A stretch of 64,000 bases of DNA from Bacillota bacterium (GCA_029570375.1 JAKPXB010000040.1:155464-219463); one strand, 5' to 3'. Shown: positions 31,722 to 46,711, numbered from the stretch's first letter. Translations and numbers: made by a program. Notes: generated by a model not told the origin, from the letters alone.

Positions 31722-32173
31722 CAGCTTTGGGACGGCGATTCCGCGCCGCCGGCCGGAAAGACCATCAGATTGATGCCGATCCCGGGGTCCATCTCCCGTT
31801 CAATGGTGCCCTTCAATAGACTGATCACAATCTCACATGTGACGGCAACACGCGCTTCGCTGAGATGCCCGCCGACAACGGCGCCTGTTTCATCACTGAT
31901 TGTCATATGCATATGGATATAGGGAGCGCCTTCCTGCGCCGTGATATTCCCGATGAGACTGGTAATCTCATATTCGCCTTTGAATTCGTTCACGAGATAG
32001 CGGCGCTTCTCAAGCGAATAGAGGCCGAGCCTGGCGTAGTCGACGGCTCCGATGCCGCTTAAAAAGCCGAGACCGATCTGCTCTTTCTGACAAAGATCAT
32101 GAATGGCTTTTACAATCTCTTCCCCGCGGTCGATACGCAGGATATACGCGCTGTCAGTTTTCAAATAGTTCAT
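31721..32173 (-). CDS. PPC/DUF296 domain protein
   Basis: ...ILRIDRGEEIVKAIHDLCQKEQIGLGFLSGIGAV...GAPYIHMHMTISDETGAVVGGHL is the typical PPC (DUF296) pattern. Confidence 0.7.
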   Translation of the reverse strand: MNYLKTDSAYILRIDRGEEIVKAIHDLCQKEQIGLGFLSGIGAVDYARLGLYSLEKRRYLVNEFKGEYEITSLIGNITAQEGAPYIHMHMTISDETGAVVGGHLSEARVAVTCEIVISLLKGTIEREMDPGIGINLMVFPAGGAESPSQS

Positions 32174-32244
32174 CGCAGGGACACTCTTTCTATGCCGTAA
32201 ACATCGCCATCGGTGAGCGGCAAAACGCTTAATTACGCTTTCTG

Positions 32245-32919
32245 TTACAGCGTTTCTTCAAGATAAGGGCGGGCGAGTTTAATGAGAGCACTGGCGCCGA
32301 GGCGTGACGCGCCGATCCTGAGATAGGTGAGCGCGTCCTCCAGCGAGCGAATCCCCCCCGAAGCTTTTACGCCGATGTGCGGACCGACATTGGCGCACAG
32401 GAGCCGGACATCGTCCGGTGTCGCTCCGCCGGACGCAAACCCGGTAGATGTCTTGATGAAATCGGCTTCACAGGCGGTAACAATCTCAGAGAGGCGTATT
32501 TTCTCGTGTTCGTCGAGTTCGGACGTTTCGATAATGACTTTCAGGATCGCGTCATCGCAGAGATCCCGGATTTGCTCAATCTCGTCCGTGATAAAATCCC
32601 AGAGGCCGTCTTTGACCCAGCCGAGATTGATGACCATATCGATCTCTGAGGCGCCATTTTCTAGCGCGTCCTCTGTCTGGTACAGTTTGGAACCCGTCGT
32701 GTCATACCCGTTCGGGAACCCGATCACCGTACAGATAGGAAGAGCACCGTCCACATAGTTGACGGCCTCACTGACATAAGAGGCGGGAATGCAGCAGCTC
32801 GCGCACCCGAATTCCATCCCCTCTCTCAGCAGCTTCGTTATCTCATCATATGTGGCTGCCGGCCGCAAAAGCGTATGATCCGTCGCCCTCAGAATACGTT
32901 CGACATCTGCTCTTTCCAT
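32245..32919 (-). CDS. deoC: Deoxyribose-phosphate aldolase
   Basis: ...DHTLLRPAATYDEI...CCIPASYV...ADFIKTSTGF...VGVKASGGIR has the catalytic Lys context of DeoC. Confidence 0.9.
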   Translation of the reverse strand: MERADVERILRATDHTLLRPAATYDEITKLLREGMEFGCASCCIPASYVSEAVNYVDGALPICTVIGFPNGYDTTGSKLYQTEDALENGASEIDMVINLGWVKDGLWDFITDEIEQIRDLCDDAILKVIIETSELDEHEKIRLSEIVTACEADFIKTSTGFASGGATPDDVRLLCANVGPHIGVKASGGIRSLEDALTYLRIGASRLGASALIKLARPYLEETL

Positions 32920-32990
32920 GGTCAGTCCTCCTTCACTGCGCTCGATTGCCCTGCTCTATTGTCGCACATTTTATTGTGCGATATCCATCC

Positions 32991-34205
32991 TTATTGCTTT
33001 TCAATGGGCGATGTCTTCTTTTTGACTGTGTCATCCGGTTCTGTCGCCGGAACGCTTTCCTGATCGAAGAACCCCCGCATATCACTCAGTATAAATGCTT
33101 CCGGAGGAAAAGGGACGGTTCTTTTCTCTCTCCCCGCCTGAAAAACAGCGAGAATGTGGCGAAGTGCCGCAAGCCCAGCTTCTGCGGAGGCAAGCGCCGG
33201 CCGCCCTTCCTCAATAGCATCGAGAATGTCTCCATACATAAACGTATACGGATTCCCGAGCGCTTTCAGTACTCCGATACCTTCACGTTTCACGCGGTTC
33301 ACCACTGCGTCCGCCAGCAGCTTCCGGTGGTATTTTCTCCCGCCGTCGCCGAGAATTGTAACTTTCGGTATACCGCCTGATACAGACGCGTTCACTGTCC
33401 CGCGCTCACAGCGGAGAAAGAAAGACGCTTCCCGGCGCCGCGGGTCGCTGTTTGTCGTGCCTTCAATAAGCAGGAGACGGTTGTTCTTCAGAAGCAGTGT
33501 CCCGACGGCGAGATCGGCGGCTTCGATCTGATGGCACTGGCGCAGCAGCGTGCCTGTCGCTTCGACCGGCACCGCGTCCATCAGCCATGTCATCAGATCG
33601 ACGGCGTGAATACTCTGATTCATGAGTGCCCCGCCTTCACTCTCCCAGGTTCCAAACCAGGGAGCCTGATCGTAGTAAGCCTGGCTGTGTCCCCAGCGGA
33701 CAGCCACCGAACCGTAGAGAACCTCTCCCAGGACACCGCTGCCCACCAGGTCTTTCATCTCCGGAACACCGGGGATATAGCGGTATTTCATACCGACAGC
33801 CATAACGCGCTTTCTCTCCCGCGCGTACTCAATCAGCTGCTCGGCTTCGCCGACATCGAGTGTGAATGGCTTCTCGACGATGAGATGCGTGCCGGCACGG
33901 AGCGCCTTCTCCGCGATCGAAAAGTGCGTCGCCGGCGGTGTGGCGATCACCGTCAGATCAATCGGCGTCTTTCCCAGTATTTCATCGACCGAGTCAGCCC
34001 GGAGGGGAACGGGGAAGCGCCGGCCACGACCGGCTATGACCGCTTCCAATGCTTCCCTGTTTCTGTCGGCGATGGCGGCGAGCTCAACATAACCCCGTCT
34101 CTCAAAAAAGCGGATGGCTTTCAGGTGGCCGGCAGAGGCGCGGCCACAGCCGACGAGCGCTATTCTCAAACGTTTATAGGGTTTTTTCCGCCTGTCTGTA
34201 TTCAT
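32991..34205 (-). CDS. Gfo/Idh/MocA-family NAD(P)-dependent oxidoreductase
   Basis: LRIALVGCGRASAGHLKAI... Rossmann N-terminus and ...HLIVEKPFTL.... Confidence 0.85.
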   Translation of the reverse strand: MNTDRRKKPYKRLRIALVGCGRASAGHLKAIRFFERRGYVELAAIADRNREALEAVIAGRGRRFPVPLRADSVDEILGKTPIDLTVIATPPATHFSIAEKALRAGTHLIVEKPFTLDVGEAEQLIEYARERKRVMAVGMKYRYIPGVPEMKDLVGSGVLGEVLYGSVAVRWGHSQAYYDQAPWFGTWESEGGALMNQSIHAVDLMTWLMDAVPVEATGTLLRQCHQIEAADLAVGTLLLKNNRLLLIEGTTNSDPRRREASFFLRCERGTVNASVSGGIPKVTILGDGGRKYHRKLLADAVVNRVKREGIGVLKALGNPYTFMYGDILDAIEEGRPALASAEAGLAALRHILAVFQAGREKRTVPFPPEAFILSDMRGFFDQESVPATEPDDTVKKKTSPIEKQ

Positions 34206-34248
34206 CCTCTCCCATTGTCCCGCGCTTGTCCGTCCTTCCCGGAAGTCC

Positions 34249-36516
34249 TCAGACCGACAGGCCCGTCCTGTAACCCGCCCGTACCGCCTGCGCGATCATC
34301 CCCGCGTCCGCCGCGTCGCCGAGGAGATGGATCTCCGGCGTGATGTACTCGTCTTTGAGCAGACGATAGAACGAATCGTCCGGCTCGCTCCCGACAGCGA
34401 GAACAACGAGATCCGCCTCGATTGAGCGGGTGCGGATCTCCTGTCTGATCGGTTTCGCCAGAGGGTTGGGAATATTCTCGGGGAGAACCGGCGTCCACGT
34501 ATTGTAAGGATCCGGTACCGTAGCAGACTCGTTTACCCTGACGGAAACGCTTCCTTCCCCGATGCTCTCCAGCCGCGCGCAATTCATCAGTTTGACACCG
34601 CGCTTCTCAAGCTCATGGATGATATGGGTCCGGTTGGCCGTACAAATACCGCCCATAAAGACAGGGAGCATTTCAACTACGGTGACTTCCATATCGTGTT
34701 CGGCGGCAAGCATCAGCGCCACTTCAGATCCGACTGTCCCGCCGCCCACGACAACCGTTTTCCGCTTATCCTGGAGGAGCGTCAAATCTCCCAGAAGCGA
34801 CCGGGCGAGGACAGCCCGTTCGATTCCGGGGATGTCTGGAACCGTCTCACGGCTTCCCGTCGCACATACGATCACATCGTAGTGACCGTTCGCAAGCATA
34901 GCGAGTGTCGCCTCCGTATTCAGAAGGAGCTTGAAGTCGGGGTTGTCCCGGTCACATATTTCGACAGTGCGCTCCATCCATTCGAGGTAATTTCTCACAT
35001 CGCGCTTGAACAGCGGAACAGACGCGAGCCGCACCGTGCCGCCGACACCTTCCTGCTGATCGATCAGGTGTACCTCGTGGCCGCGGCTGAGAGCAGCCAT
35101 CGCGCATTCGAAGCCGGCGGGGCCCGCTCCCACGACCGCGATTTTCTTCCTGACGGGCGCCTTGGGCGGCTCCGCGGGAAGCGCCGACTCAAAGGAAGTC
35201 CGCGGATTGACAGCGCAGCACGGATGGCCTCCTTCGACAAATTCATGGATACAGGCTTCCTGACAGCCGATGCACGGCCGGATGGCGTCAACCCTGCCGG
35301 CGTAAGCTTTCTGCGGCCACGCGGGATCGGCGAGCAACGGCCTTCCAAGCATCACCATATCGCACATTTCATCCGCCAGAGCCTTCTCCGCGAGGTCGGG
35401 ATAACCGAGTTTGCCAACGGCGGCGACGGGGACGGGAAGTCCTTTGTTTGAGACGATTTTATGCTCAGCAAAATAGTCTTTGACCAGCTTGGATACATGA
35501 AGAAAAACACCGGGTTTCATTGTCACAGGCGGATGCGGGAGCCACCAGTTGTCGTAACATCCGAGGTCGACATCGAACAGATCGACGCCTGCCGCGACCA
35601 GGTTCTTCATATAGTCGAGCGTCTGTTCGATTGTCCGCTCATTTCTGAATTTCCGCAGTGTCTTTACCGTCCGCATACGCTCCCCGTAAGTCGCGTTCAG
35701 AGCCAGTGACAAATCGATCCTGTACATAATCGGATAATCGGGGCCGGTGCGCTTCCGGATCTCGCGGACGACGTCCAGTCCGAAGTTCTGCCAGTGGGCG
35801 TAGCGGCCGAGCCTGCGGCGGTTGAACGCGGGGTTTGTCAGCTGCTCCAGGAGATACCCCTCATGTCCGTGCAGATAGACGCCGTCAATCGTCGCGGCTT
35901 TGGCATCAGCAGCCGCCTGGCCGAAGTTCCTGATCATTTTCTTCAGTTTTCTCCCGGAAAGCCGGAGACACGGAACGCCGGGGAGATAGTAATTCGGATT
36001 GAGCGAAGCCGAAACGGGGAATTTATGCTGGTTTACCAGACACTGCGGATTCCCGACGCGCCCCAGGCCGGCAGTCAGCTGGATAAAGAAGCGGGCGCCC
36101 GCCGCGTGCGTATTATGCGCGATGTCGCGCCACCCTGAATAGTATGTCCTGCTCCCCAGAATTTTCGGGAAATACGTGAGGTCTCCCGGTTCTTTCAATG
36201 AATGATCGATTCCGAACGAGACAGGAACGAGCCCCGAAGTGATCAATCCGACGCCGCCTTTCGCGCGCTCTTCGAAATAGGCGATCATCGATCGATCCGG
36301 CCGGCCCGTCTCTTCCGCCTGCGAGATATTTCCCATCGGCGCCATGATCAGTCTGTTTTTCAATGTGAGGCTGTTGACGCGGATCGGGGAAAAAATTGAC
36401 TTGTAAGGGTAAAGCATCTGCGTCATACGGCCGCCGGCGATTTTTCCCTCATCGAGGAACCAGTCTCCGGAATCTTTTAACCAGTCCGCGAGCAATGTTT
36501 CCGGGTATTTTGACAT
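34249..36516 (-). CDS. OYE-like FMN oxidoreductase fused to FAD/NAD(P)-binding domain (2-enoate reductase / 2,4-dienoyl-CoA reductase family)
   Basis: LKNRLIMAPMG, then the Fe-S motif RPCIGCQEACIHEF...CCAVNP, then KIAVVGAGPAGFE and VVVGGGTVGSE dinucleotide folds. I chose the start MSKYPE (ATG 36516) with an upstream GGAAGG; the track ORF starts at 36552. Confidence 0.85.
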   Translation of the reverse strand: MSKYPETLLADWLKDSGDWFLDEGKIAGGRMTQMLYPYKSIFSPIRVNSLTLKNRLIMAPMGNISQAEETGRPDRSMIAYFEERAKGGVGLITSGLVPVSFGIDHSLKEPGDLTYFPKILGSRTYYSGWRDIAHNTHAAGARFFIQLTAGLGRVGNPQCLVNQHKFPVSASLNPNYYLPGVPCLRLSGRKLKKMIRNFGQAAADAKAATIDGVYLHGHEGYLLEQLTNPAFNRRRLGRYAHWQNFGLDVVREIRKRTGPDYPIMYRIDLSLALNATYGERMRTVKTLRKFRNERTIEQTLDYMKNLVAAGVDLFDVDLGCYDNWWLPHPPVTMKPGVFLHVSKLVKDYFAEHKIVSNKGLPVPVAAVGKLGYPDLAEKALADEMCDMVMLGRPLLADPAWPQKAYAGRVDAIRPCIGCQEACIHEFVEGGHPCCAVNPRTSFESALPAEPPKAPVRKKIAVVGAGPAGFECAMAALSRGHEVHLIDQQEGVGGTVRLASVPLFKRDVRNYLEWMERTVEICDRDNPDFKLLLNTEATLAMLANGHYDVIVCATGSRETVPDIPGIERAVLARSLLGDLTLLQDKRKTVVVGGGTVGSEVALMLAAEHDMEVTVVEMLPVFMGGICTANRTHIIHELEKRGVKLMNCARLESIGEGSVSVRVNESATVPDPYNTWTPVLPENIPNPLAKPIRQEIRTRSIEADLVVLAVGSEPDDSFYRLLKDEYITPEIHLLGDAADAGMIAQAVRAGYRTGLSV

Positions 36517-36576
36517 ACAACCACTTCCTTCCTCTGAGTTCACCTCAACCATACCACGCAGAGGGCTTCTTTTATT

Positions 36577-37269
36577 TTACTCTTTGAAGTCATCCGCCCC
36601 GCAGCCAGAGGCAAGCGTCACCCCCAGGCCGCGGCAGATGAAATCGACATTCGCGCGGACGAGGCGTTCGCGGTCGCCATCCGCCTCGTCGCCGAGATAG
36701 TGCTTCATCTTCAGATGATAGTAGCGGGACGTAAGGGCGAGCTGGAGCATCACGACGGCATTATCGATATAGAGAGCGGCCATATCCAGGTCGATATCCT
36801 CGCGAACCTCTCCGCGTTCAACCGCCCGCTTCAGAACCGTTTTATACATCGAACGGAAACTCATCTCCGCCTGGTCGGACAGCCGCTCTGTCTGAACTTT
36901 CATATTGTCCGTTGTAATCAGAAGATAAAGCCGGCACATGTCGGGGTGTTTCTCTGTATACCGGATAGCGACCCGGAATAATCGCTCCAGAACATCCGTA
37001 ATAGTCCCCTGATCCGGACAGCACTCACTCATCGCCCGGTCGAGGAGCTCCAGTCCTTTCTCAACCAGGGCGAGAAAGAGATCTTCTTTCGAATCGAAAT
37101 AACTGTACATCGATCCGATGCTGATCCCGGCGAGTTTCGCGATTTCATTGATATTCGCCGCATCAAATCCACGCTCCGCAAACACGGAGATGGCCGTTGT
37201 GAAAATGATGTCCTGCTTTTCCGGCGCGATCTTCTCGAATGTCTCTTTATAAAAGCGGGAAGACGCCAT
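36577..37269 (-). CDS. TetR/AcrR-family transcriptional regulator
   Basis: The N-terminal HTH is FAERGFDAANINEIAKLAGISIGSMYSYFDSKEDLF. Confidence 0.9.
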   Translation of the reverse strand: MASSRFYKETFEKIAPEKQDIIFTTAISVFAERGFDAANINEIAKLAGISIGSMYSYFDSKEDLFLALVEKGLELLDRAMSECCPDQGTITDVLERLFRVAIRYTEKHPDMCRLYLLITTDNMKVQTERLSDQAEMSFRSMYKTVLKRAVERGEVREDIDLDMAALYIDNAVVMLQLALTSRYYHLKMKHYLGDEADGDRERLVRANVDFICRGLGVTLASGCGADDFKE

Positions 37270-37414
37270 GAACGAACCTCCAATGCATCAGGGCGGGCAG
37301 TTCCGCAATGGCCGCAGAACCGCCCGGCATCCTTCTATTAAGCCGCTGTTGCTATGCCGACACAGACCTCCCACGAATCGAAGTCCGGCCGGTCTCCCTC
37401 CGGTTATCTCCGCG

Positions 37415-38206
37415 TTAAGGCTGCGCGTACGAACCGACGAGCAGCATGTAGTCCCCGAGCATGCTCCCGAACTCAGGGCCGCCCTCCATCACCATCTTCC
37501 CCTGAGCGACGAGCTCTACCATATCCCCCGTTGAGAGAAGTGTCGCGAGCGCGCTTTCGAGATCGACAAACCGCATCGTGAAGAATGGCTTCGAGCGCAT
37601 ATAGCGGCCATGCGCCGACTTTGTTTTCCCCGCTTTCACACGCAGATACGCCGCGACATCCTCATACCCGTCAACCGTCCACGCATACACGCGGTTCGGA
37701 CTCGTTTTCGTCCATGCGTTGATCGACGGATGACCTTCGCGGTTCAGCTGGCTGATGCCGGAAGACAGGAGATAGAAATACAGTTTAACGAGCAGCCGCT
37801 GTGTCGGTTCATCTTTCGGCGCTTCCTTCATTTTAAGAAGCGAGGCCATCTTCAGCAGCGCTTTCATAAAGGGAATCAGAATACCGACCTTCAGCAGCCC
37901 CCGGATAGCCGGCAGTTTCTTCGATGTGCCCTTCATAAAACTGTTAAAATCCTGAAGGCTCCTGAAGAAAAGCTCAACAGTCGGCTTTTTCGAAGACGCG
38001 CCGAGCGTTGTGGTCACCTCTCCTTTGTCGACAACAAAATGTGTCGCCCAGAGCCCCGTGTCAGTTTGGGCGCTCACCTGGAATATCCCGGATTTTCCTC
38101 TGAGTTTTGAGCCGATACCCGGGGTATCATCCAGGATGACGCGGACGAGAGGAAGGACGGCATTGAAGAAAATCTTACCCGCGTAACGGTCATCTTTCGT
38201 ATCCAT
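37415..38206 (-). CDS. Unknown protein, SCP2-like C-terminal region; paralog of 41367..42125
   Basis: I chose the start MDTKDD (ATG 38206), one nt after the tktC stop and preceded by GAGGTG. It shares its layout with the other paralog (central K/L-rich amphipathic segment; C-terminal F..F.DLESALATLL..GDM...A.GKM.M.G). Confidence 0.5.
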   Translation of the reverse strand: MDTKDDRYAGKIFFNAVLPLVRVILDDTPGIGSKLRGKSGIFQVSAQTDTGLWATHFVVDKGEVTTTLGASSKKPTVELFFRSLQDFNSFMKGTSKKLPAIRGLLKVGILIPFMKALLKMASLLKMKEAPKDEPTQRLLVKLYFYLLSSGISQLNREGHPSINAWTKTSPNRVYAWTVDGYEDVAAYLRVKAGKTKSAHGRYMRSKPFFTMRFVDLESALATLLSTGDMVELVAQGKMVMEGGPEFGSMLGDYMLLVGSYAQP

Positions 38207-38207
38207 C

Positions 38208-39209
38208 TCACACCTCATCCGCCCAATCGTCATCGTCTTCGAAATCGAGCTGCAGGAGGTCGTGAACAGCTTTCACGATACCGTTCGTATCGATGCCGTG
38301 TATCGCCATCAGATCTTCGTGGTAACCGATCGGCGAGAAGCAGTCCTGCAGGCCGAGCCGGCGGAATGCACAGCTCATGCCGCTCTCGGCGAGAACTTCG
38401 GCGACCGCGCCGCCGAGACCGCCGATGATCGTGTGGTCTTCCACTGTAATAATCCTGCGTGTATCGTGACACGCTTTCAGGATTGCTTCTTTGTCGATTG
38501 GCTTGATCGTATGCATGTCGAGAACCCGCGCGCTGATGCCGTCCGCGCTGAGCTCAGAGGCTGCCTGAATGGATTGAAAGACAGCGGATCCGCAGGCGAT
38601 AATCGTGACATCCGTCCCTTCCGCGAGCTGTACCGCCTTTCCGATCTCATACCCGTAATCGAGATCTTTGTAGACGAGCTGGTCAAAACCGCGGTTGATG
38701 CGGATGTAGACAGGGCCCTCATAGCCGACCGCCGCGCGGACGACATTCGCCGTCTCCATACCGTCGGCGGGAACGATCACGACCAGGTTGGCCAGTGACC
38801 GCATGATCGCGATATCTTCCGTCGAATGGTGCGTGGTTCCCGCCTGGCCGAAAGATGTCCCGGCATGGGAAGAGATCATCTTCACATTCGCCTTCTGATA
38901 GCAGATATCGGTGTGCACCTGGTCGAGGGCACGGCACGACGTAAAGATCGCAAAGGAAGATGTAAACGGGATGAGGCCGGCTTTGGCCATGCCCGCGGCC
39001 GCGCCGTACATATTCTGCTCCGCGATGCCGAACTGATAGAACCTGTCAGGGAAGCGCTTCATGAAGTCGCCGATCTTTGACGATTTCCCCAGATCAGCCG
39101 TCAAGGCGACGATACGGGGATTCTCTTCAGCCAGTTCACACAATGTCTCACAATAGACTTCACCGGTCGACAGCCTCGTCTGATTGATGCTCGTAAATGA
39201 AATACCCAT
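38208..39209 (-). CDS. Transketolase, C-terminal (pyrimidine-binding) subunit
   Basis: FPDRFYQFGIAEQNMYGAAAGMAKAGLIPFTSSFAIF.... Confidence 0.9.
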   Translation of the reverse strand: MGISFTSINQTRLSTGEVYCETLCELAEENPRIVALTADLGKSSKIGDFMKRFPDRFYQFGIAEQNMYGAAAGMAKAGLIPFTSSFAIFTSCRALDQVHTDICYQKANVKMISSHAGTSFGQAGTTHHSTEDIAIMRSLANLVVIVPADGMETANVVRAAVGYEGPVYIRINRGFDQLVYKDLDYGYEIGKAVQLAEGTDVTIIACGSAVFQSIQAASELSADGISARVLDMHTIKPIDKEAILKACHDTRRIITVEDHTIIGGLGGAVAEVLAESGMSCAFRRLGLQDCFSPIGYHEDLMAIHGIDTNGIVKAVHDLLQLDFEDDDDWADEV

Positions 39210-40081
39210 TATTCCGCTCCTCTCCGTTCAATCGCGGCTACTCTGCTTTCGTAGTACTGATCGAGATCGCGCAGCGCCTCGTCGCCCATTTCCCGTGTGA
39301 TGCCTCCGTAGTGCCAGTGGTAGTCACCGGCACAGAACCCGACGCCTTTGCCCTTGCATGTGTCGAGAATAATACACGTCGGCTTGTCTGTGCGATCGAG
39401 AGCAGCCTCAATCGCTTCACTCATCGCCTCAAAGTCATGTCCGTCGACTGTCACGGCGTGAAATCCGAATGCGCGCCACTTGTCTTCGAACGGTTCGATC
39501 GGCATGACATCCTCTGTCATCCCGTCAATCTGCGCGTGATTGCGGTCGACCAGCGTGACGAGGCGGGGAGGATTGAAGTGCCCGATCGCCATCGCCGCTT
39601 CCCAGACGGCGCCCTCCTGGCATTCACCGTCACCGAGCAGACAGAATGTCCGGTAGCTTTTCCCTAACTGCTTCGCGGCGAGTGCGGTTCCGAGCGCGAT
39701 TGAAAGGCCGTGGCCGAGCGAACCTGTGGAAGCGTCAACTCCGGGGACTTTATTCGCATCCAGGTGGATGCCGAGCTTTGAACCCGTCAGGTTGAAAATC
39801 TCCAGGTCTTTTTTCGCGATATACCCGATGTCCGCGAGAATCGCGACAAATCCGATCCCCGCATGTCCTTTCGACATGATGAAGCGGTCACGATCCTCCC
39901 AGTCGGGCTTTTCCGGATCGATTCGCATAAAACGGCTGTACAGAAGCGTCGCCACATCAATCATGCTGAGTGCGCCGCCGAGATGGCCGCTGCCGGCGCA
40001 GAGTGTCGTTTCAATGATGGTGCGTCTGTGTTCGTGCGCTTTGGCTTCGATCGCGAGCAATTCCTCTCTTGTCAATGGCAT
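39209..40081 (-). CDS. Transketolase, N-terminal (TPP-binding) subunit
   Basis: GSGHLGGALSMIDVATLLY...DRFIMSKGHA...GSLGHGLSIALG...LLGDGECQEGAVWEA. Confidence 0.9.
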   Translation of the reverse strand: MPLTREELLAIEAKAHEHRRTIIETTLCAGSGHLGGALSMIDVATLLYSRFMRIDPEKPDWEDRDRFIMSKGHAGIGFVAILADIGYIAKKDLEIFNLTGSKLGIHLDANKVPGVDASTGSLGHGLSIALGTALAAKQLGKSYRTFCLLGDGECQEGAVWEAAMAIGHFNPPRLVTLVDRNHAQIDGMTEDVMPIEPFEDKWRAFGFHAVTVDGHDFEAMSEAIEAALDRTDKPTCIILDTCKGKGVGFCAGDYHWHYGGITREMGDEALRDLDQYYESRVAAIERRGAE

Positions 40082-40093
40082 AGCATACCTCCT

Positions 40094-41353
40094 TTAACGG
40101 TACATTTCAGGGTGGCGTTTGCGAACAGCTTCAAAGGCCTCGTGAGCGGCTTCAAACGTGTACACAAGATCCTCTTCACCCATTGCGCAGTTCATAAAAT
40201 GATTGTGGTGGTTGGCGAGGAAGACTCCGCGCATCACCATCTCGGCGACCCACTCCTGCAGCAGCACAGAGGAATCGTCATCTCCCAATGTCAGGAAAGG
40301 CATCGCCTTTTCACCTGTGACGCGGAATTCAAACCCGTGCTGCCTGGCCGCCTCCGTCAACCCTTCCGCGAATTTCTCACCTGTTTTCTTCATAACCTCC
40401 GGCGCGTTGATCTCCCGCATAATCTCAATGCAGCGGATCGCGGCGGCGATCGGAACAGCTGACAGCCAATAGCTGCCCGTCGCGAAGACCGAACTGATTG
40501 ACGGGCGAAGCGACGCGTCGCCGCACAGAGCGGAGATGTTATAACCGTTTGCCAGCGCTTTGCAGAAACAGATCAGGTCGGCGCGGAAACCATAATAATG
40601 ATCCGATCCGCGCACATCGAGGCGGAATCCGCAGCGGACATCGTCGAGGATCAGCACGATGCCATTCGCCGTGCAGAGTTGGCGGACATCATTCCAAAAA
40701 CCGGGTTCAGGGAGATGATTCTCATAGAATGCCTGATGATCATAGGGCGTCGAAATCACACCCGCGATATCGCCCCGGTATTCCTCAAGGACCCGCTTGA
40801 ACAGTTCGATACTGTTGAAAGGAATCGTGATGGTATTCTCAACATCTTCGAGCAGGACACCGGGATACCCGGCATCCAGCATCCAGGGGAGAATACCGTG
40901 ATAACCGCCTTTGAATTTGATGATTTTTTTCCGCCCTGTCGCGGCTCTGGCGGTCAGCATCGCGAGGTTTGTGACGTCTCCGCCGTTTTTCGCGAACATC
41001 GCCCAGTCAGCGCTGTCGACAGTATCGACGAGCAGCTCCGCCAGCTCGATCATGAGGGGAGAAGGAACAGTCGTGCAGTTCGATTTTTCCATCTGTGCGC
41101 GCGCCGCGGCGTCAACTTCCGGGTGGTTGTATCCGAGGATATTGGGGCCGTAGGCACACATATAGTCGATAAAGCGGTTTCCGTCAACATCCCAGAAATG
41201 AGCCCCTTTCGCGGTTTCACAGAAAATAGGATAGGCAGAAACAGGGATAAAGCAGCCCGCGGCCGGTCCGAGATGACCCGGGACGCCGGCAGGAATTACT
41301 TTTGCGGCTCTGTCGAACAAAGCGTTACTTTTCGGATATTGGTATAACTGCAT
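40094..41353 (-). CDS. Class-III (GSA-aminomutase-like) PLP aminotransferase
   Basis: I chose the start MQLYQYPKSN (ATG 41353) after AAAGGAG. Family pattern: ...GAHFWDVDGNRFIDYMCAYGPNILGYNHPEV...LILDDVRCGFR.... Confidence 0.8.
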   Translation of the reverse strand: MQLYQYPKSNALFDRAAKVIPAGVPGHLGPAAGCFIPVSAYPIFCETAKGAHFWDVDGNRFIDYMCAYGPNILGYNHPEVDAAARAQMEKSNCTTVPSPLMIELAELLVDTVDSADWAMFAKNGGDVTNLAMLTARAATGRKKIIKFKGGYHGILPWMLDAGYPGVLLEDVENTITIPFNSIELFKRVLEEYRGDIAGVISTPYDHQAFYENHLPEPGFWNDVRQLCTANGIVLILDDVRCGFRLDVRGSDHYYGFRADLICFCKALANGYNISALCGDASLRPSISSVFATGSYWLSAVPIAAAIRCIEIMREINAPEVMKKTGEKFAEGLTEAARQHGFEFRVTGEKAMPFLTLGDDDSSVLLQEWVAEMVMRGVFLANHHNHFMNCAMGEEDLVYTFEAAHEAFEAVRKRHPEMYR

Positions 41354-41366
41354 AGCGAGACTCCTT

Positions 41367-42125
41367 TCACGACAGGAAGCGCGGGACCATACCCAGCAGC
41401 TTGTCGAGACTGTCAATCATGGGAATACGGCCGCGCATAGCGATATTCCCTTTCCCGATACACGTATAGCTGTCGAGATCTCCGTTCAGCAGGCCAAAGG
41501 CCGTCTCGAACGAATCGAACATCATCGCGGCCCGCGCGTTCGCGTTTCTGCCCTTTGCCGCGCGAAGACTGCCTTTTTCCGCGATAAGATGGAGTCCGAA
41601 ATCATCACCGACTGTCACATTGACAATTCCTTCTTCCATTTTTCCGGCAATCCGCTGCCCGGTTTCATCGTAACGAGAAATCTCCGGTACGGCGAAAAAG
41701 GCTGTATAGGCAGTCAGAATCGTGCTTTTCTCGAGGAACCCCTGTTCTTTTTTTATCCTCTCCCGATCAGGTTTCAGATAGCTCTCCAGCTGTCCCGCCA
41801 GAAATGTAAACGTTTTTTTCAGAAATCCGATATGCCGAAACCCTTTGGTCGGCAGCGGGTTCTTCTCGCCGGCGACCATCAGATTCAGGTGTTCCGGAGA
41901 TGAAAACCGAAGATTCATGTCGCAGGGAATATTCTCCCCCCGACGGGCACTGCATTGTCCGTCATGGAAAGTCAGCACCAGCCGGTCAATCCCGGGAACG
42001 GAGAATCGGATCGCGGCCTCGTGGCCGCGTATGGCGTTCGCAGACGCCTCATCGAGCTGACAGAGATCTTCCATGTTCCGGAGCAAAGCGTGCAGATTAA
42101 TCGCCGCTTTTACCGCTTCATTCAT
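41367..42125 (-). CDS. Unknown protein, SCP2-like C-terminal region; paralog of 37415..38206
   Basis: I chose ATG 42125 (MNEAVKAA), downstream of GAAGGAGG. The C-terminus AAMMFDSFETAFGLLNGDLDSYTCIGKGNIAMRG resembles the SCP2 sterol-carrier fold. Confidence 0.5.
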   Translation of the reverse strand: MNEAVKAAINLHALLRNMEDLCQLDEASANAIRGHEAAIRFSVPGIDRLVLTFHDGQCSARRGENIPCDMNLRFSSPEHLNLMVAGEKNPLPTKGFRHIGFLKKTFTFLAGQLESYLKPDRERIKKEQGFLEKSTILTAYTAFFAVPEISRYDETGQRIAGKMEEGIVNVTVGDDFGLHLIAEKGSLRAAKGRNANARAAMMFDSFETAFGLLNGDLDSYTCIGKGNIAMRGRIPMIDSLDKLLGMVPRFLS

Positions 42126-42219
42126 AATAATCACTCCCTCCTTCGCAGATCGTATGACTTTATTACATTAAGATTGTCTGCAAACCTTGATACGCTCATG
42201 TTTTACAGATAATGGATTA

Positions 42220-42241
42220 ATAGAGCGAGTACTCGCTCTAT
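42220..42241. promoter_or_regulatory. Perfect 22-bp palindromic operator candidate
   Basis: ATAGAGCGAGT|ACTCGCTCTAT is its own reverse complement (checked base by base). It begins 5 nt downstream of the leftward -10 element. Confidence 0.6.
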
Positions 42242-42246
42242 CTCTA

Positions 42247-42274
42247 AATATATATAAATATTAGGAATTGTCAA
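42247..42274 (-). promoter_or_regulatory. Near-consensus sigma-70 promoter for the leftward operon
   Basis: The minus strand reads TTGACA-16 nt-TATATT, inside the AT-rich divergent intergenic region. Confidence 0.55.
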
Positions 42275-42357
42275 TCATTTTTTCAAAAACCCCCATCAAA
42301 CTGCCTAAATGAATCGCTCTCTTAGCGGATTATTTGAGAAGATATCCCCATTTCTCG

Positions 42358-42386
42358 TTGTCACAATACATAAAACCTGATAATAT
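42358..42386 (+). promoter_or_regulatory. Promoter candidate for pntAA
   Basis: TTGTCA-17 nt-TAATAT, about 40 nt upstream of the pntAA start. Confidence 0.5.
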
Positions 42387-42428
42387 ACAGTCGTATCGAT
42401 AACTAAGTTCACGCAGGAGGTGCAAAAT

Positions 42429-43595
42429 ATGATTATCGGTGTTCCAAAGGAAATCATGGTTGGTGAAAGACGCGTTGCGGCTTCGCCCGAAACGGTAAAG
42501 AAAATGGTCGGCGACGGCTTGACTGTCCTTATCGAAAAAGAGGCCGGAGAAGGCGCTTTTTACCATGATCCGGAATATGTGGCAGCAGGAGCGGAAATAG
42601 TAGAGAACGTGGCTGATCTCTTCGATCGCGCGGATGTCATCCTGAAAGTAAAAGAACCGCTCTTCAATGAGAAACAAGGTAAGCACGAAGTCGACCTCAT
42701 GCATGAAGGCCAAGTCATTATTACATTCATTCACCCCGCCGCGCCGGTCAACCATGACATGGTGAAACATATGGCTGAATGCGGCATTACAAGCATCACG
42801 CTCGACGGCATCCCCCGCATCACGCGCGCGCAGGCGATGGACGCGCTGACCTCCATGAGCACATGTGCAGGCTACAAGGGCATGCTGATCGCGGCCAATG
42901 AACTGCCGAACTTCGTCCCGCAGATCTTCACAGCTGTCGGTATGATTAAGCCGATCAACGTCCTCGTCATCGGGACAGGTGTCGGCGGACTCCAGGCGCT
43001 CGCCACAGCGAAACGCCTCGGCGCCGTCGTTTACGCCGCGGATATCCGCCCGGCTGCCGCTGAGCAGGCGATGTCACTCGGCGCGAAGGTCGTCGACCTC
43101 GGCGTCCCTCCTGAGGAAGCCATCGGCGAAGGCGGATACGCCCTGATGCTTTCACCGGAGCGCCTCGAAGCCGAGCGCGAGATCCTCGCCGAGAAAGTCA
43201 AGGATATGGACATTATTTTCCTTTCCGCGCTCGTCCCCGGCAAACTCGCCCCGATCCTCATCACCGAAGAGATGGTCAAATCCATGAAGCCCGGATCCGC
43301 GATCGTCGATATCTCAATCGACCAGGGCGGCAACTGCGAGATCACCCCTTCCGGCACGATCGAAGTGAAACACAACGTGACACTCATCGGCATCAAGAAT
43401 ATCCCCGGACTGCTTCCGAAGAGCTCGACATGGATGTTCTCCCAGAACATCTACAACCTGTTGAAGTACCTGATCAAGGACAACCAGATTTACCTCGACA
43501 TGGAGGATCCGATCGTCCAGCAGGCGCTCACAACGTACCAGGGCAAAGTCGTCCACAAAGGTGCGCTTGAGGCCTTCGCCGCGCTTGGTCATTAA
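42429..43595 (+). CDS. pntAA: NAD(P) transhydrogenase subunit alpha part 1 (dI, NAD(H)-binding)
   Basis: MIIGVPKEIMVGERRVAASPETVKKM..., VLVIGTGVGGLQALATAKRLGA. ATG 42429 lies 8 nt after AGGAGG; the track begins at a GTG at 42420. Confidence 0.9.
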   Translation: MIIGVPKEIMVGERRVAASPETVKKMVGDGLTVLIEKEAGEGAFYHDPEYVAAGAEIVENVADLFDRADVILKVKEPLFNEKQGKHEVDLMHEGQVIITFIHPAAPVNHDMVKHMAECGITSITLDGIPRITRAQAMDALTSMSTCAGYKGMLIAANELPNFVPQIFTAVGMIKPINVLVIGTGVGGLQALATAKRLGAVVYAADIRPAAAEQAMSLGAKVVDLGVPPEEAIGEGGYALMLSPERLEAEREILAEKVKDMDIIFLSALVPGKLAPILITEEMVKSMKPGSAIVDISIDQGGNCEITPSGTIEVKHNVTLIGIKNIPGLLPKSSTWMFSQNIYNLLKYLIKDNQIYLDMEDPIVQQALTTYQGKVVHKGALEAFAALGH

Positions 43596-43787: not shown

Positions 43788-44090
43788 ATGACAACTACAC
43801 AGGCCATCCTTCTGGGCGTCTTCGTTGTGGCGACGCTGGTTGGCTACAAAATTATCACGCGCGTCCCGAGTCTGCTGCATACGCCTCTGATGTCAGGCAT
43901 GAACGCCTTTTCCGGCGTCACCGTCCTCGGATGTCTCGCCGCGACAGCGGCCGCGGCGCACTGGGGCAGCAAAATCCTCGGCTTTCTGGCGATCGTCCTC
44001 GCGATGATTAACGTCGTCAGCGGATTCGGTGTGACACACCGTATGCTGAGAATGTTCCACAGCAGTTCGAAGAAAGGGGCAGAAAAATGA
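43788..44090 (+). CDS. pntAB: NAD(P) transhydrogenase subunit alpha part 2 (membrane dIIa)
   Basis: 100 aa with three predicted TM helices, ...LLHTPLMSGMNAFSGV.... RBS AAAAGGAGA. The stop overlaps the pntB start (ATGA). Confidence 0.85.
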   Translation: MTTTQAILLGVFVVATLVGYKIITRVPSLLHTPLMSGMNAFSGVTVLGCLAATAAAAHWGSKILGFLAIVLAMINVVSGFGVTHRMLRMFHSSSKKGAEK

Positions 44091-46711
44091 TACATACCAT
44101 CTCCCGCATGGTTCTCGAAGCCATGCCTGCCCTCACAGTGGTTAATACAGGATCACAGACGTTCTACTACATCGCCGCGGGCGTGTTGACTGTTCTCGTC
44201 CTCGTCGGGATCTCCATGATGAGTAAAGTGGAAACCTCCGTTGTCGGGAACGCGCTTGGCGCGACAAGCATGTTTCTCGCTATTGTGCTGACACTCTGGT
44301 ATTTCGACATTCTTACGGTCTGGCTTCTCTATGCCGCCATGCTCGTCGGTCTTCTGATCGGTATTGTCGCGTCGATCCGCGTCAAGATGATTCAAATGCC
44401 GCAGATGGTCGGCCTGCTGAACGGATTCGGCGGCGCGGCCTCCATGCTCGCGGGTATTCTCACGCTGATTGCCGCCAGCCCGGATGAAACCGTCTTCTCA
44501 CTTCTGACATCCGGTCTCGCCATTTTCGTCGGCTCACTGACGCTGACAGGAAGCCTTGTCGCCGCGGGCAAACTCCACAAAGTTCTCCCGCAGCGCCCGA
44601 TCGTCCTGAGGAACCACCAGCTCTGGACGGCTCTCTCGCTCATCCTCTCGCTTGTAACCGTAGTGCTTCTCGGTATTCCCACTCTGCTGGATATCGCTGT
44701 TCTGAAGATCGTCTTGCTAATCGGGTGCGCGGTTTTTTCCGGCGCGTTCGGCGTGATCTTCGCGATCCGCGTCGGCGGAGCCGATATGCCGATCACGATT
44801 TCTCTCCTGAACTCTTTCTCCGGTGTCGCCGGCTCCATCGCCGGTATGGCGATCGGCGATCCGCTCCTCGTCGCGGTCGGCGGTGTGGTCGGAGCGTCCG
44901 GCCTCCTGCTGACGCAGATCATGTGCCGAGCGATGAACCGCAAGCTCTTCGACATCCTTCTCGGCAAAACGTCGGTCGCCGGCGCGCCTGCCGCGAAGAA
45001 ACCGGAACAGCCGAAAGCCGAGAAAGCGGCTCCCGTCAAAGCGGAAAAAGCGGTCCTTTCTCCGGAAGAATGCTGTGGCTGCTGGCTGCGTGACGCTGAG
45101 CGCGTCATCATCGTGCCCGGGTACGGCATGGCCCTTTCTCAGGCGCAATCGACGGTGAAACAGCTCATGTCCGAACTCGAAGCGGCAGGTAAAGAGGTCA
45201 AGTTCGCGATTCACCCGGTGGCCGGCCGTATGCCCGGCCATATGAATGTGCTCCTGGCTGAAGTCGATATCCCCTACGACAAACTCTATGAGATGCAGGA
45301 TATCAACGATGAGTTCAAAGACACCGATGTCGCGATCGTCATCGGCGCGAACGATGTCATCAATCCCGCCGCGAATACAGCGGAAGGCACCCCGATCTAC
45401 GGCATGCCGATCCTCAACGTCGTGGAATCGAAACACGCGGTCATCTGCAACTTTGACAAACTCCCCGGCTACGCCGGCGTCGACAACCCACTCTATGAAG
45501 AGGGCAAAGAAGACCGAATCGCGCTGATGCTCGGCGATGCGAAAGAGACACTCAACGCGATTATGAAATCCTATCGTTCATCAGGCGAAAAGACCGCCGA
45601 AACAGCGGCCGGCTCCGATGCCGCGATGACGCCGGAACTCCATTGCGGACAATGGCTCCGCGACGCGGAACGGGTCATTATCGTTCCCGGATACGGCATG
45701 GCGCTCTCACAGGCGCAGTCCATCGTCAAACAGCTCATGATGGATCTCGAAGCAGAAGGCAAAGACGTCAAATTCGCGATTCATCCCGTCGCCGGCCGCA
45801 TGCCCGGACATATGAACGTGCTGCTCGCCGAGGTCGATATTCCATACGACAAACTCTATGAGATGCAGGATATCAACGATGAGTTCAAAGACACCGACGT
45901 CGCGATCGTCATCGGCGCGAATGACGTCATCAACCCCGCCGCCAACACCGCGGAGGGCACACCGATCTACGGCATGCCGATCCTTGATGTCGCCGACGCC
46001 AAGCACGTGATCATCTGCAACTTCGACAAACTTCCCGGCTATGCCGGCGTCGACAACCCGCTCTACGACGAGGGACAGGAAGACAAGATCGCGCTCATGC
46101 TCGGCGACGCGAAAGAAACGCTTCAGTCGATTATCGGGGCTTTCCGCGTCTGCGAAGTCCCGCAGCCCGCCGCTGACGGCGGACAAACGGCTGAGCAGAT
46201 TTGCGGCTCGTGGCTGAACGACGCGAAACGGGTCATCATCGTCCCCGGTTACGGCATGGCGCTCTCACAGGCGCAGTCTATCGTGAAGCAGCTCATGGCA
46301 GAGCTCGAATCGGCGGGAAAAGACGTCAAATTCGCGATCCACCCCGTCGCCGGCCGTATGCCCGGCCACATGAACGTGCTGCTCGCGGAAGTCGACGTCC
46401 CCTATGACAAACTTCACGAGATGCAGGACATCAACGGCGAATTCAAAGACACGGACGTCGCGATCGTCATCGGCGCGAACGATGTCATCAATCCCGCCGC
46501 GAATACCGCGGAAGGCACGCCGATCTACGGCATGCCGATCCTTAACGTCGCCGACGCGAAGCACGTGATCATCTGCAACTTCGACAAACTCCCCGGCTAC
46601 GCCGGCGTCGACAACCCGCTCTACGACGAGGGACAGGAAGACAAGATCGCCCTGATGCTCGGCGACGCGAAAGAAATGCTGAACGCGATCATCAACGCCT
46701 ACCGCTGCTGA
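44087..46711 (+). CDS. pntB: NAD(P) transhydrogenase subunit beta with THREE tandem dIII (NADP(H)-binding) domains, 874 aa
   Basis: The N-terminal ~300 aa form the multi-TM dII. The block WL.DA.RVIIVPGYGMALSQAQ...HPVAGRMPGHMNVLLAEV...IGANDVINPAA...LPGYAGVDNPLY then occurs three times, separated by short Ala/Glu/Pro linkers. Confidence 0.85.
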   Translation: MIHTISRMVLEAMPALTVVNTGSQTFYYIAAGVLTVLVLVGISMMSKVETSVVGNALGATSMFLAIVLTLWYFDILTVWLLYAAMLVGLLIGIVASIRVKMIQMPQMVGLLNGFGGAASMLAGILTLIAASPDETVFSLLTSGLAIFVGSLTLTGSLVAAGKLHKVLPQRPIVLRNHQLWTALSLILSLVTVVLLGIPTLLDIAVLKIVLLIGCAVFSGAFGVIFAIRVGGADMPITISLLNSFSGVAGSIAGMAIGDPLLVAVGGVVGASGLLLTQIMCRAMNRKLFDILLGKTSVAGAPAAKKPEQPKAEKAAPVKAEKAVLSPEECCGCWLRDAERVIIVPGYGMALSQAQSTVKQLMSELEAAGKEVKFAIHPVAGRMPGHMNVLLAEVDIPYDKLYEMQDINDEFKDTDVAIVIGANDVINPAANTAEGTPIYGMPILNVVESKHAVICNFDKLPGYAGVDNPLYEEGKEDRIALMLGDAKETLNAIMKSYRSSGEKTAETAAGSDAAMTPELHCGQWLRDAERVIIVPGYGMALSQAQSIVKQLMMDLEAEGKDVKFAIHPVAGRMPGHMNVLLAEVDIPYDKLYEMQDINDEFKDTDVAIVIGANDVINPAANTAEGTPIYGMPILDVADAKHVIICNFDKLPGYAGVDNPLYDEGQEDKIALMLGDAKETLQSIIGAFRVCEVPQPAADGGQTAEQICGSWLNDAKRVIIVPGYGMALSQAQSIVKQLMAELESAGKDVKFAIHPVAGRMPGHMNVLLAEVDVPYDKLHEMQDINGEFKDTDVAIVIGANDVINPAANTAEGTPIYGMPILNVADAKHVIICNFDKLPGYAGVDNPLYDEGQEDKIALMLGDAKEMLNAIINAYRC
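45083..45580 (+). repeat. pntB dIII copy 1 (aa ~333-498)
   Basis: First unit of the intragenic tandem triplication. The conserved Trp codon is at 45083. Confidence 0.85.
45653..46150 (+). repeat. pntB dIII copy 2 (aa ~523-688)
   Basis: The equivalent Trp codon is at 45653 (570-bp offset). It differs from copy 1 at many synonymous third positions. Confidence 0.85.
46211..46708 (+). repeat. pntB dIII copy 3 (aa ~709-874)
   Basis: The equivalent Trp codon is at 46211 (558-bp offset). The unit runs to the natural C-terminus. Confidence 0.85.

Follow-up and report, generated by a model that had tools for sequence, protein, structure and literature searches.

A conserved operon pairing a FumI-like aminotransferase and a split transketolase with two predicted tandem-SCP2 proteins: a candidate module for sphingoid-base breakdown

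A five-gene block on the minus strand of a 64,000-nucleotide stretch of DNA from a Bacillota bacterium (GCA_029570375.1 JAKPXB010000040.1:155464-219463; the whole stretch that was analysed is called the window) combines a class-III, pyridoxal phosphate (PLP)-dependent aminotransferase (AT) and a split transketolase with two proteins, unkA and unkB, that are predicted to be tandems of SCP2 domains. With belief and doubt about evenly balanced, we propose that the block is a TetR-repressed module that breaks down or detoxifies a hydrophobic 2-amino-1,3-diol, most likely a sphingoid base (sphinganine, sphingosine, phytosphingosine) or a close analogue. We have more confidence in this general model than in the narrower claim that common D-erythro sphingoid bases serve as its substrates in nature. 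More tentatively, the module may represent a hitherto undescribed cytosolic form of sphingoid-base breakdown, in which FumI-like deamination would be followed by a lipid-cleaving transketolase that passes the C1-C2 unit into sugar-phosphate metabolism, with tandem-SCP2 proteins as chaperones. The cassette, built from known superfamilies and two unannotated tandem-SCP2 families, lies outside every described pathway. A preliminary description of this DNA could name no pathway for the combination, and the literature likewise gave no match: searches for transketolase with aminotransferase and SCP2, and for sphingoid base with transketolase, returned nothing relevant, and a search for sphingosine catabolism in gut bacteria returned no pathway.

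The five genes are read leftward in the order unkA (252 aa; 41367..42125), AT (419 aa; 40094..41353; fold type I, FumI-like branch; Pfam Aminotran_3, E 3e-39), transketolase N subunit (TK-N, 290 aa; 39209..40081; thiamine diphosphate (ThDP)/PP domain; Pfam Transketolase_N, E 3e-45), transketolase C subunit (TK-C, 333 aa; 38208..39209; Pyr and TKC domains; Pfam Transket_pyr and Transketolase_C) and unkB (263 aa; 37415..38206). They are closely packed, with gaps of 13 nt between unkA and AT, 12 nt between AT and TK-N, -1 nt between TK-N and TK-C and 1 nt between TK-C and unkB, and a Shine-Dalgarno site is present at every start; the ATG of unkA stands behind an AGGAGG site. The TK-C stop codon (TGA, 38210-38208) is separated by a single g from the ATG of unkB (38206-38204; TGAgATG), and the unkA stop codon (TGA, 41369-41367) merges into AAGGAG, with the ATG of AT 13 nt further on. 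The tiny gaps, both of these sites of stop/start coupling (38206-38210 and 41367) and the minus-strand gene order, including the TetR and old yellow enzyme (OYE)-like flavoenzyme genes beyond unkB, had already been given in the preliminary description, the checkable details of which are all correct. Two further details were absent from it: the one-base overlap of TK-N and TK-C (TAATG at 39209) and an AGGAGG within the 12-nt gap between AT and TK-N.

Conservation was scanned through unkB relatives, with one genome per species. Such relatives occur in at least 582 genomes, and neighbourhoods were read in the best 80 loci. Nearly all of the ~80 inspected loci with sufficient flank keep the order unkA-AT-TK-N-TK-C-unkB on one strand, and the identical order was seen at two additional loci, one in Vallitalea okinawensis and one on a 2.2-Mb contig. 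Carriers belong to the Bacillota, Chloroflexota, Spirochaetota and Actinomycetota. Many are Clostridia, such as Vallitalea, Paramaledivibacter, Brassicibacter, Oceanirhabdus, and the Acutalibacteraceae and UMGS metagenome-assembled genomes (MAGs) from ruminant and human guts; the cassette is also carried by a bacillus-class MAG (Pseudogracilibacillus, L029) and by Anaerolineaceae, Spirochaetes and Actinomycetota. Vallitalea okinawensis, Paramaledivibacter caminithermalis DSM 15212 and Brassicibacter mesophilus are carriers in culture. The habitats of the carriers include ruminant and herbivore guts (as MAGs) and anaerobic digesters, and also hydrothermal vents, cold seeps and marine sites. The distribution over phyla is patchy, as for an accessory trait, and no unkB relative was found in the plasmid collection. 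In many genomes the five genes are flanked by unrelated genes only, which indicates a self-sufficient functional unit. Judged by gene order across phyla, the cassette is a real conserved operon, and the chance juxtaposition that the preliminary description had allowed for is not what was found.

The members of the cassette differ in constancy. Invariably, unkB adjoins TK-C, and unkA is sometimes truncated or lost. Two partial cassettes (L010, L056) are without unkA and AT, one locus (L013) has unkA detected as two separate pieces (query residues 2-25 and 120-251), and Austwickia chelonae (L040) has no detectable unkA; TK-N, TK-C and unkB are retained in all four. A variant locus (L083, 7138-14035) contains TK-N, a fusion of TK-C to an unkB-like domain (P0400, 8001-9806), a glyoxalase and a fatty-acid-hydroxylase family protein with weak similarity to OlsE. 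It is without a class-III aminotransferase, and two of its proteins, of 341 and 479 aa, gave no match in Pfam, NCBIfam, PDB or the unkA profile. One aminotransferase sequence (P0235, of the lineage of loci L020, L022 and L084) stands for 2199 member sequences, which indicates that the organism is very common in public metagenomes.

TK-N and TK-C are closest to the split transketolase of Carboxydothermus hydrogenoformans (6YAJ/6YAK; E 1.5e-82 and 5e-70), which has the same division into alpha2-beta2 subunits and the same machinery of ThDP and histidines (PMC7661550). The ThDP/Mg motif GDG...N is kept, D151 and N181 being invariant in 74 orthologs. All five histidines that hold the donor ketol in Escherichia coli transketolase (EcTK H26, H66, H100, H261 and H473) are retained in 73-74 orthologs; their equivalents in the window, H33, H73, H106 and H257 of TK-N and H127 of TK-C, are invariant. 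The position of EcTK R358 is occupied by Ala (62), Gly (8), Thr (2) or Ser (1) and in none of 73 orthologs by Arg. Equivalents of EcTK S385, H461 and R520 are kept, so that the full phosphate-binding set of a canonical sugar-phosphate transketolase (EC 2.2.1.1) is incomplete, with R358 gone and the three others present. The pair E468-D469 of EcTK is replaced by Gln-Ala in 72-73 of 73 orthologs, and GSLG-H-G (Gln to His) and W-H-Y (Gly to Tyr) are further family-wide signatures. In contrast, the C. hydrogenoformans enzyme keeps R358, E468 and D469, and human transketolase likewise has E-D at 468-469.

The roles of these residues are established. The phosphate of the substrate is bound by R358, S385, H461 and R520; D469 forms hydrogen bonds with hydroxyl groups of the substrate and determines which stereoisomer is accepted (PMC11387542). 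D469T is a known propanal-accepting mutation (PMC10787763), and alterations at R358, S385, D469 and R520 let the E. coli enzyme take hydrophobic aldehydes (PMC7661550); the engineered changes at D469 and R358 that admit aliphatic and aromatic aldehydes affect the same positions that are substituted in the natural cassette family. The cassette enzyme has the look of a genuine ketol transferase whose substrate channel has been remodelled. With the phosphate-binding Arg and the hydroxyl-binding Asp lost, one substrate appears to have no phosphate and no hydroxyl adjacent to the carbonyl, i.e., to be an aliphatic chain. A sugar phosphate as partner in the second half-reaction would agree with the partly kept phosphate site.

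The best PDB match of AT is the "aminopentol aminotransferase" FumI (6HBS; E 4.7e-91, 309 bits, 40.6% identity over 397 aa), and its PLP lysine, in CFCKAL, aligns with the Lys of CWGKCF in FumI. The best glutamate-1-semialdehyde aminomutase (HemL) match (E 4e-50, 174 bits) lies 135 bits lower. Public names for AT homologs are HemL or generic, and a homolog search returned only orthologs (56-100% identity) with such names and no distant informative relatives. HemL was rejected as an identity for AT, which scores 237 bits against a cutoff of 398 (NF000818) and 225 against 527 (TIGR00713); with the cutoffs missed so widely, the public HemL labels are unsupported. FumI moves the C2 amino group of hydrolysed fumonisin B1 (HFB1), a sphinganine analogue, to pyruvate, and its authors remarked that the C1-C5 part of the 2-keto product "resembles a simplified ketose" (PMC3136697). 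By analogy, AT is presumed to catalyse the same type of reaction, in which a long-chain 2-amino-3-hydroxy compound loses its C2 amino group and becomes a 2-ketone. Among proven HFB1 transaminases the mutual identity is 61-74% (PMC9858248). By sequence comparison AT probably belongs to a distinct branch rather than being a FumI ortholog. No description of the fate of 2-keto-HFB1 was found in the fumonisin literature searched.

A metagenome scan with FumI as the query yielded 80 loci of true FumI orthologs (59-71% identity), TetR-linked in 42 of 76. Several locus types were seen. One has TetR with an Opp/Dpp-type ABC transporter, and another reads TetR-AT-PhyH-DAO-SDR (the last being a short-chain dehydrogenase/reductase). 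In 9-10 loci, PfkB kinase and class II aldolase genes come immediately after the order MFS-TetR-TonB receptor-AT; this suggests that a kinase and an aldolase process the keto product of FumI-type enzymes by a route so far undescribed. Kinase and aldolase were noted in L143, L144, L149, L152, L155, L158, L159, L164 and L166, often with MFS, TetR and the TonB-dependent receptor upstream. A split transketolase stands beside the FumI ortholog in six loci (L153, L156, L157, L161, L162 and L163), of which L156 and L157 look like one sequence; two of the six contigs are titled marine or seawater. In full, L156 reads TKN-TKC-TetR-AT followed by an Opp/Dpp-type ABC transporter, with no SCP2-like genes. 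The FumI-linked TK-C has, at the EcTK positions, Thr at R358, Ala at S385 and Phe-Tyr at E468-D469, and the signatures GSLG-H-G and H-H are common to the FumI-linked transketolases and the family in the window. A FumI-type aminotransferase is thus coupled to sugar-type C-C cleavage in two unrelated architectures, and the transketolases so coupled have a derived active site in common; this supports a sequence of deamination to a ketol and subsequent cleavage, irrespective of the side chain.

The relationship between unkA and unkB is marginal by BLASTP (E 0.004), and a comparison of profiles was needed to show it. Aligned by hhalign, family profiles made from 29 and 35 homologs, respectively, match with a probability of 98.3% and an E value of 1.5e-14 over 223 columns. 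By this measure the two are real, old and distant paralogs, as the preliminary description had supposed from their general features. AlphaFold (AF2) models were obtained with high scores (predicted local distance difference test 94.0 and predicted template-modelling score 0.90 for unkA; 94.8 and 0.91 for unkB), and in each of them the same secondary-structure pattern occurs twice. Foldseek searches of the PDB with these models, the check that had been proposed for the two proteins, returned for both solely SCP2-fold lipid binders: SCP2, SCP2-like proteins, UbiJ-SCP2 and the alkylsulfatase C-terminal domain (E ~1e-5 to 1e-3, probability 1.0), most of the matches spanning one half of the query. 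Homology between the N and C halves of unkA was detected by hhalign (88.5%). Given the half-length matches, the repeated pattern and the homology of the unkA halves, each protein is, as modelled, a tandem of two SCP2 domains. The SCP2-like C terminus noticed earlier is thus confirmed and extended, with the fold predicted in both halves of both proteins.

At the level of domain databases the similarity is faint. The N-terminal half of unkA matches Pfam SCP2 (PF02036) with 20.0 bits, below the gathering score of 21.3, and unkB has no match in Pfam or NCBIfam; a precomputed PF02036 match exists on some homologs of unkA and unkB. The ~40 homolog clusters of unkA are all named "hypothetical", unkB has >630 homolog clusters, and no name for either family was found in any source consulted. 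Among 1.84 billion representative proteins, the relatives of both together make up a compact group that comprises only 279 clusters at 50% identity. Each half has the same fold as SCP2, UbiJ-SCP2 and the alkylsulfatase C-terminal domain, but unkA and unkB differ from these binders in scoring at or below the Pfam threshold, in their tandem architecture of 250-265 aa and in their fixed context beside a transketolase. Invariant polar residues are N10, N17, E19, C58, Y116, D153 and K191 in unkA and H56, H159, R172, Y145, Y202 and E245 in unkB. From the folds, a lipid-carrier role is inferred for both proteins. The natural fusion P0400 (601 aa), in which TK-C is joined through a Ser/Thr/Pro linker to an unkB-like domain, argues for physical cooperation of unkB with the transketolase.

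Upstream of unkA, a sigma-70-type promoter (TTGACA, 16-nt spacer, TATATT; 42247..42274, minus strand) is predicted by consensus match; with 11 of 12 consensus positions it is the best promoter-like site in 32800-42500. A perfect, strand-neutral 22-bp palindrome (42220..42241), with the halves ATAGAGCGAGT and ACTCGCTCTAT, lies immediately downstream of the -10 box. Its 20-nt core, TAGAGCGAGTACTCGCTCTA (42221-42240), occurs once in the window, where 0 matches are expected by chance, and the predicted TetR target sequence at the operon promoter is ATAGAGCGAGTACTCGCTCTAT. The core motif GAGYGAG-N0-6-CTCRCTC has 14 occurrences in 1.29 Mb of related loci. Thirteen of these lie 2-176 bp upstream of the called unkA start, the remaining copy overlapping the start by 18 bp, and 13 of the 14 sit in loci with a TetR gene. 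C/T changes in one half-site are mirrored in the other, and the motif is the sole invariant block of otherwise divergent unkA leaders. There is strong comparative evidence that the TetR-family protein encoded just beyond unkB (36577..37269, minus strand; Pfam TetR_N, PF00440, E 1.6e-16) is a dedicated repressor of the cassette, with the palindrome as its candidate operator. A conserved operator over the promoter and a dedicated TetR fit an inducible catabolic or detoxification operon. Rfam gave no RNA element in 32800-42500, which indicates that the leader has no riboswitch.

Genes that recur beside the cassette were counted by clustering all flanking open reading frames in the ~80 loci; the recurrent neighbours are placed directly after unkB. 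TetR is found in 31 loci, usually just downstream of unkB, followed in frequency by a glyoxalase/VOC protein (15 loci), an NAD-epimerase-type SDR (12), a FadH/OYE-type flavoenzyme (11), a class-3 aldehyde dehydrogenase (ALDH; 6) and an aldehyde:ferredoxin oxidoreductase (AOR; 6). The ALDH matches class-3 ALDH structures with E 1e-101 to 1e-117, and fatty aldehyde dehydrogenase 4QGK is among its PDB matches (E 4e-101). Judging from these families, the common theme of the recurrent neighbours is the handling of aldehydes or enals. In the window, TetR is followed in the same direction by a FadH/enoate-reductase-type Fe-S flavoenzyme of 767 aa (34249..36552, minus strand; Oxidored_FMN and Pyr_redox_2), an occasional accessory whose best PDB matches are 2,4-dienoyl-CoA reductase 1PS9 and 2-naphthoyl-CoA reductase 6QKG (E ~1e-50). 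Both genes follow the operon here, as the preliminary description had it; at 31 and 11 of ~80 loci, they do not belong to its core.

A 2-amino-1,3-diol is the simplest compound that could be handled by an aminotransferase and then by a transketolase: deamination at C2 gives CH2OH-CO-CHOH-R, the motif of a transketolase donor, and cleavage of this ketol gives R-CHO. The SCP2 carriers, the aliphatic-adapted transketolase, the FumI-like AT and the fatty-aldehyde-type accessories make a long alkyl chain the most plausible identity of R and thus point to a sphingoid base. In favour of a catabolic or detoxifying direction are control by TetR and its operator, accessory enzymes that oxidise, and the lack of acyltransferase and head-group genes. 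The following scheme, with its substrate, its carriers and the sequence and direction of its steps, is inferred. The tandem-SCP2 proteins would extract the lipid from the membrane, keep lipid and products soluble and pass them to the enzymes, with unkB acting at the transketolase. AT would move the C2 amino group to a keto acid and so form a 1,3-dihydroxy-2-ketone, a "lipid ketose". The split transketolase would then cleave the C2-C3 bond, holding the two-carbon ketol on ThDP and releasing a fatty aldehyde, and the bound ketol would be handed to an acceptor, probably a sugar phosphate. The aldehyde may be oxidised by the class-3 ALDH or AOR or reduced by the SDR, and the FadH/OYE-type ene-reductase may saturate the 2-enal or 2-enoate expected from a 4-ene base such as sphingosine, 2-enals being a type of substrate natural to its family.

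Several observations weigh against this scheme. No ceramidase, sphingomyelinase or lipid transporter is conserved beside the cassette in the loci inspected, and the identity of AT to FumI falls below the range of the proven HFB1 transaminases. The proteobacterial variant, in which aminotransferase and transketolase come with an Opp/Dpp-type ABC transporter and without SCP2 proteins, would be suited to a compound of greater solubility. The invariant polar residues of unkA and unkB are unusual in passive carriers. Stereochemistry is a further difficulty: D-erythro bases (2S,3R) give a 3R ketol, and canonical transketolase donors are 3S. Possible ways out are an inverted specificity of the enzyme, a threo substrate, or epimerisation by the VOC protein or by the SCP2-like proteins, in which His, Tyr and Arg residues are invariant.

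Another reading has the same chemistry with a different hydrophobic amino-alcohol as substrate, such as fumonisin- or AAL-type aminopolyols from feed, 1-deoxysphingoid bases, aromatic 2-amino-1,3-diols or a bacterial aminolipid. The threo (2S,3S) configuration of fumonisins matches the 3S donors of canonical transketolases, the sole characterised relatives of AT act on hydrolysed fumonisins, and many carriers are ruminant or herbivore gut MAGs or digester organisms that are exposed to feed toxins; the variant locus, too, joins its TK-C-unkB fusion with an OlsE-like fatty-acid-hydroxylase gene and a glyoxalase. We nevertheless regard such a substrate as unlikely. Hydrolysed fumonisins lack a hydroxyl at C1, yet all three histidines by which the enzyme would grip the C1-OH of its donor are invariant; fumonisins are unlikely at the hydrothermal vents, cold seeps and marine sites from which some carriers come, and the cassette has no linked FumD-like carboxylesterase. 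The stereochemical mismatch also calls for an extra activity, and unkA and unkB might themselves be catalytic or structural, either as a ketol epimerase or isomerase that fixes C3 or as a scaffold for channelling between AT and transketolase. Such a role would be compatible with sphingoid-base breakdown, and the invariant polar residues in both proteins and the constant position of unkB next to TK-C, once as a fusion, would agree with it. It is on balance doubtful, since the structural neighbours are without exception lipid-binding SCP2 domains with no catalytic activity, no precedent for catalysis by an SCP2 protein was found, and loss or truncation of unkA is tolerated while the other genes persist.

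Both reactions are reversible in principle and the active-site evidence is compatible with either direction, so the cassette could also run in reverse, as a serine-palmitoyltransferase-free biosynthesis of sphingoid-like lipids in which a C2 ketol and a fatty aldehyde are joined and then aminated to a 2-amino-1,3-diol, with SCP2 holding the intermediates. An engineered transketolase-transaminase cascade yields 2-amino-1,3-diols in this way (PMC5813273), and AOR or SDR could make the aldehydes from acids or acyl thioesters. This direction is rather improbable, however: inducible catabolic or detoxification systems typically have a local TetR whose operator overlies the promoter, the class-3 ALDH runs toward oxidation, the closest characterised aminotransferases are catabolic, the patchy distribution fits an accessory trait, and in the loci inspected the cassette has no conserved partner gene for an N-acyltransferase (ceramide synthase), a reductase or a head group. 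Catabolism of an amino sugar or aminopolyol phosphate, at which the preliminary description had hinted from the downstream Gfo/Idh/MocA (32991..34205, minus strand; Pfam match) and DeoC-like aldolase genes, would have the transketolase act on a ketose phosphate, with these two enzymes completing the pathway. Split transketolases and class-III aminotransferases are indeed known from sugar pathways, and some FumI-ortholog loci contain the PfkB kinase and class II aldolase. Beside the cassette, however, Gfo/Idh/MocA is found only in the three closest relatives (L004-L006) and DeoC in no other locus inspected; since neither is conserved, the hint is left without comparative support, and Gfo/Idh/MocA is probably not a member of the module. 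In the loci inspected, the cassette has no conserved kinase, phosphatase or sugar transporter beside it, the phosphate-binding Arg and hydroxyl-binding Asp are lost family-wide, and the two extra proteins have lipid-carrier folds, with accessories that handle aldehydes and not sugars. An amino-sugar pathway is therefore very improbable. The term "aminopolyol" came close, the nearest characterised aminotransferase acting on a long-chain aminopentol; "phosphate" finds no support.

Sphingoid-base breakdown by the cassette can be set beside several known systems. In the FumD/FumI catabolism of fumonisins by Sphingopyxis sp. MTA144, FumI is the closest solved relative of AT and has the same class-III fold. 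The cassette differs in that its AT is locked to a split transketolase and two tandem-SCP2 proteins, with no carboxylesterase. Engineered cascades (e.g., for ABT) use the same enzyme classes in sequence and build the same skeleton, from aldehyde and C2 ketol through a 1,3-dihydroxy-2-ketone to the 2-amino-1,3-diol (PMC5813273), but they are man-made from unrelated enzymes, act on soluble short-chain substrates in the synthetic direction and have no carrier proteins. Anisomycin biosynthesis is a natural pairing of a ThDP enzyme of the transketolase superfamily (AniP) with an aminotransferase and an SDR (AniP/AniQ/AniN), and AniP, like the cassette transketolase, has lost phosphate-binding residues and acts on a non-phosphorylated substrate (PMC11387542). 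In contrast to the split cassette enzyme with its intact histidine motif, AniP is a single chain, resembles DXPS, the synthase that makes 1-deoxy-D-xylulose 5-phosphate, uses an alpha-keto acid donor and has no histidine-rich motif; the pathway is biosynthetic, belongs to Streptomyces and has no SCP2 proteins.

In the literature searched, sphingosine detoxification by sphBCD of Pseudomonas aeruginosa stood alone as a bacterial system that metabolises free sphingoid bases (PMC11893366). It is likewise inducible and protects against an antimicrobial lipid; its product is still not identified, and its authors suspect a reactive aldehyde (PMC11893366). It has no homology or shared architecture with the cassette, consisting of a periplasmic flavin mononucleotide oxidase, a cytochrome c, a PLP aldolase-like protein and the regulator SphR. 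The cassette scheme also resembles the eukaryotic sphingosine-1-phosphate lyase route in its C2-C3 cleavage to a fatty (en)al and in the analogous class-3 aldehyde dehydrogenase and ene-reductase. In that route, sphingosine 1-phosphate is cleaved to 2-hexadecenal, which is processed by ALDH3A2 and then by enoyl reduction. It differs in using a kinase and a PLP lyase on a phosphorylated amine, whereas the cassette is without a kinase and its cleavage would be ThDP-dependent and follow deamination.

Free sphingoid bases are antimicrobial barrier lipids and signalling molecules, abundant in host tissue, in the diet and in Bacteroidota, and to our knowledge hardly any bacterial removal of them has been described. 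If the proposal is correct, the cassette would contain the first lipid-cleaving transketolase and provide the first defined route by which anaerobes or gut bacteria destroy sphingoid bases of host, dietary or microbial origin. Together with the kinase-plus-aldolase variant, conversion of an amino-alcohol to a lipid ketose and its sugar-type C-C cleavage would then be a general catabolic strategy. Degradation of sphingoid bases by so widespread a cassette of gut, rumen, digester and marine anaerobes would also be of importance for host-microbe lipid signalling and for the removal of fumonisin-type toxins in livestock. It would be new for a natural transketolase to be tuned to long aliphatic substrates that carry no phosphate, and the transketolase-transaminase pair could be a ready-made catalyst for long-chain 2-amino-1,3-diols. 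For annotation, the predicted tandem-SCP2 families are without entries, and AT is widely mislabelled as HemL.

Other assignments were considered and rejected. The defining genes of AHBA/kanosamine-type amino-sugar clusters (AHBA, 3-amino-5-hydroxybenzoate), of sulfoquinovose catabolism by sulfo-transketolase and of bile-acid (BaiCD) chemistry are not conserved with the cassette. The 767-aa flavoenzyme itself scores below the equivalog cutoffs of BaiCD (273 bits against a cutoff of 825) and of the bilirubin reductase BilR (long form, 264 against 750). An amidohydrolase lies directly downstream of unkB in three loci (L020, L022 and L084; 12432-13781) and is related to Caulobacter-type Xaa-Pro dipeptidases, far below the cutoff. 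As a ceramidase-like step it was discarded and not used as evidence, being confined to one lineage (86% identity between L084 and the representative of the L020/L022 cluster) and Xaa-Pro-dipeptidase-like.

Beyond Gfo/Idh/MocA, the minus strand of the window at 24390-32919 encodes the DeoC-like aldolase, a PCC-domain protein, an ABC exporter, a methyltransferase, an uptake system of FecCD, ABC and periplasmic-binding proteins, and MoeA. None of these genes recurs among the cassette-neighbour gene families of other genomes. On the other side of the operon, PntA (42420-43595) and a PntA fragment with four transmembrane segments (43788-44090) precede a PntB of 874 aa (44087-46711, plus strand). 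Normal PntB has a single dIII domain; this protein has three near-identical tandem dIII NADP(H)-binding domains after the membrane part (PNTB in 3 stretches), and a relative (L004) has an 876-aa open reading frame at the equivalent position. Just past the pnt genes lies a second FadH/OYE-type Fe-S flavoenzyme (684 aa; 46952-49006, plus strand; Oxidored_FMN and Pyr_redox_2), a paralog of the 767-aa flavoenzyme downstream of the cassette.

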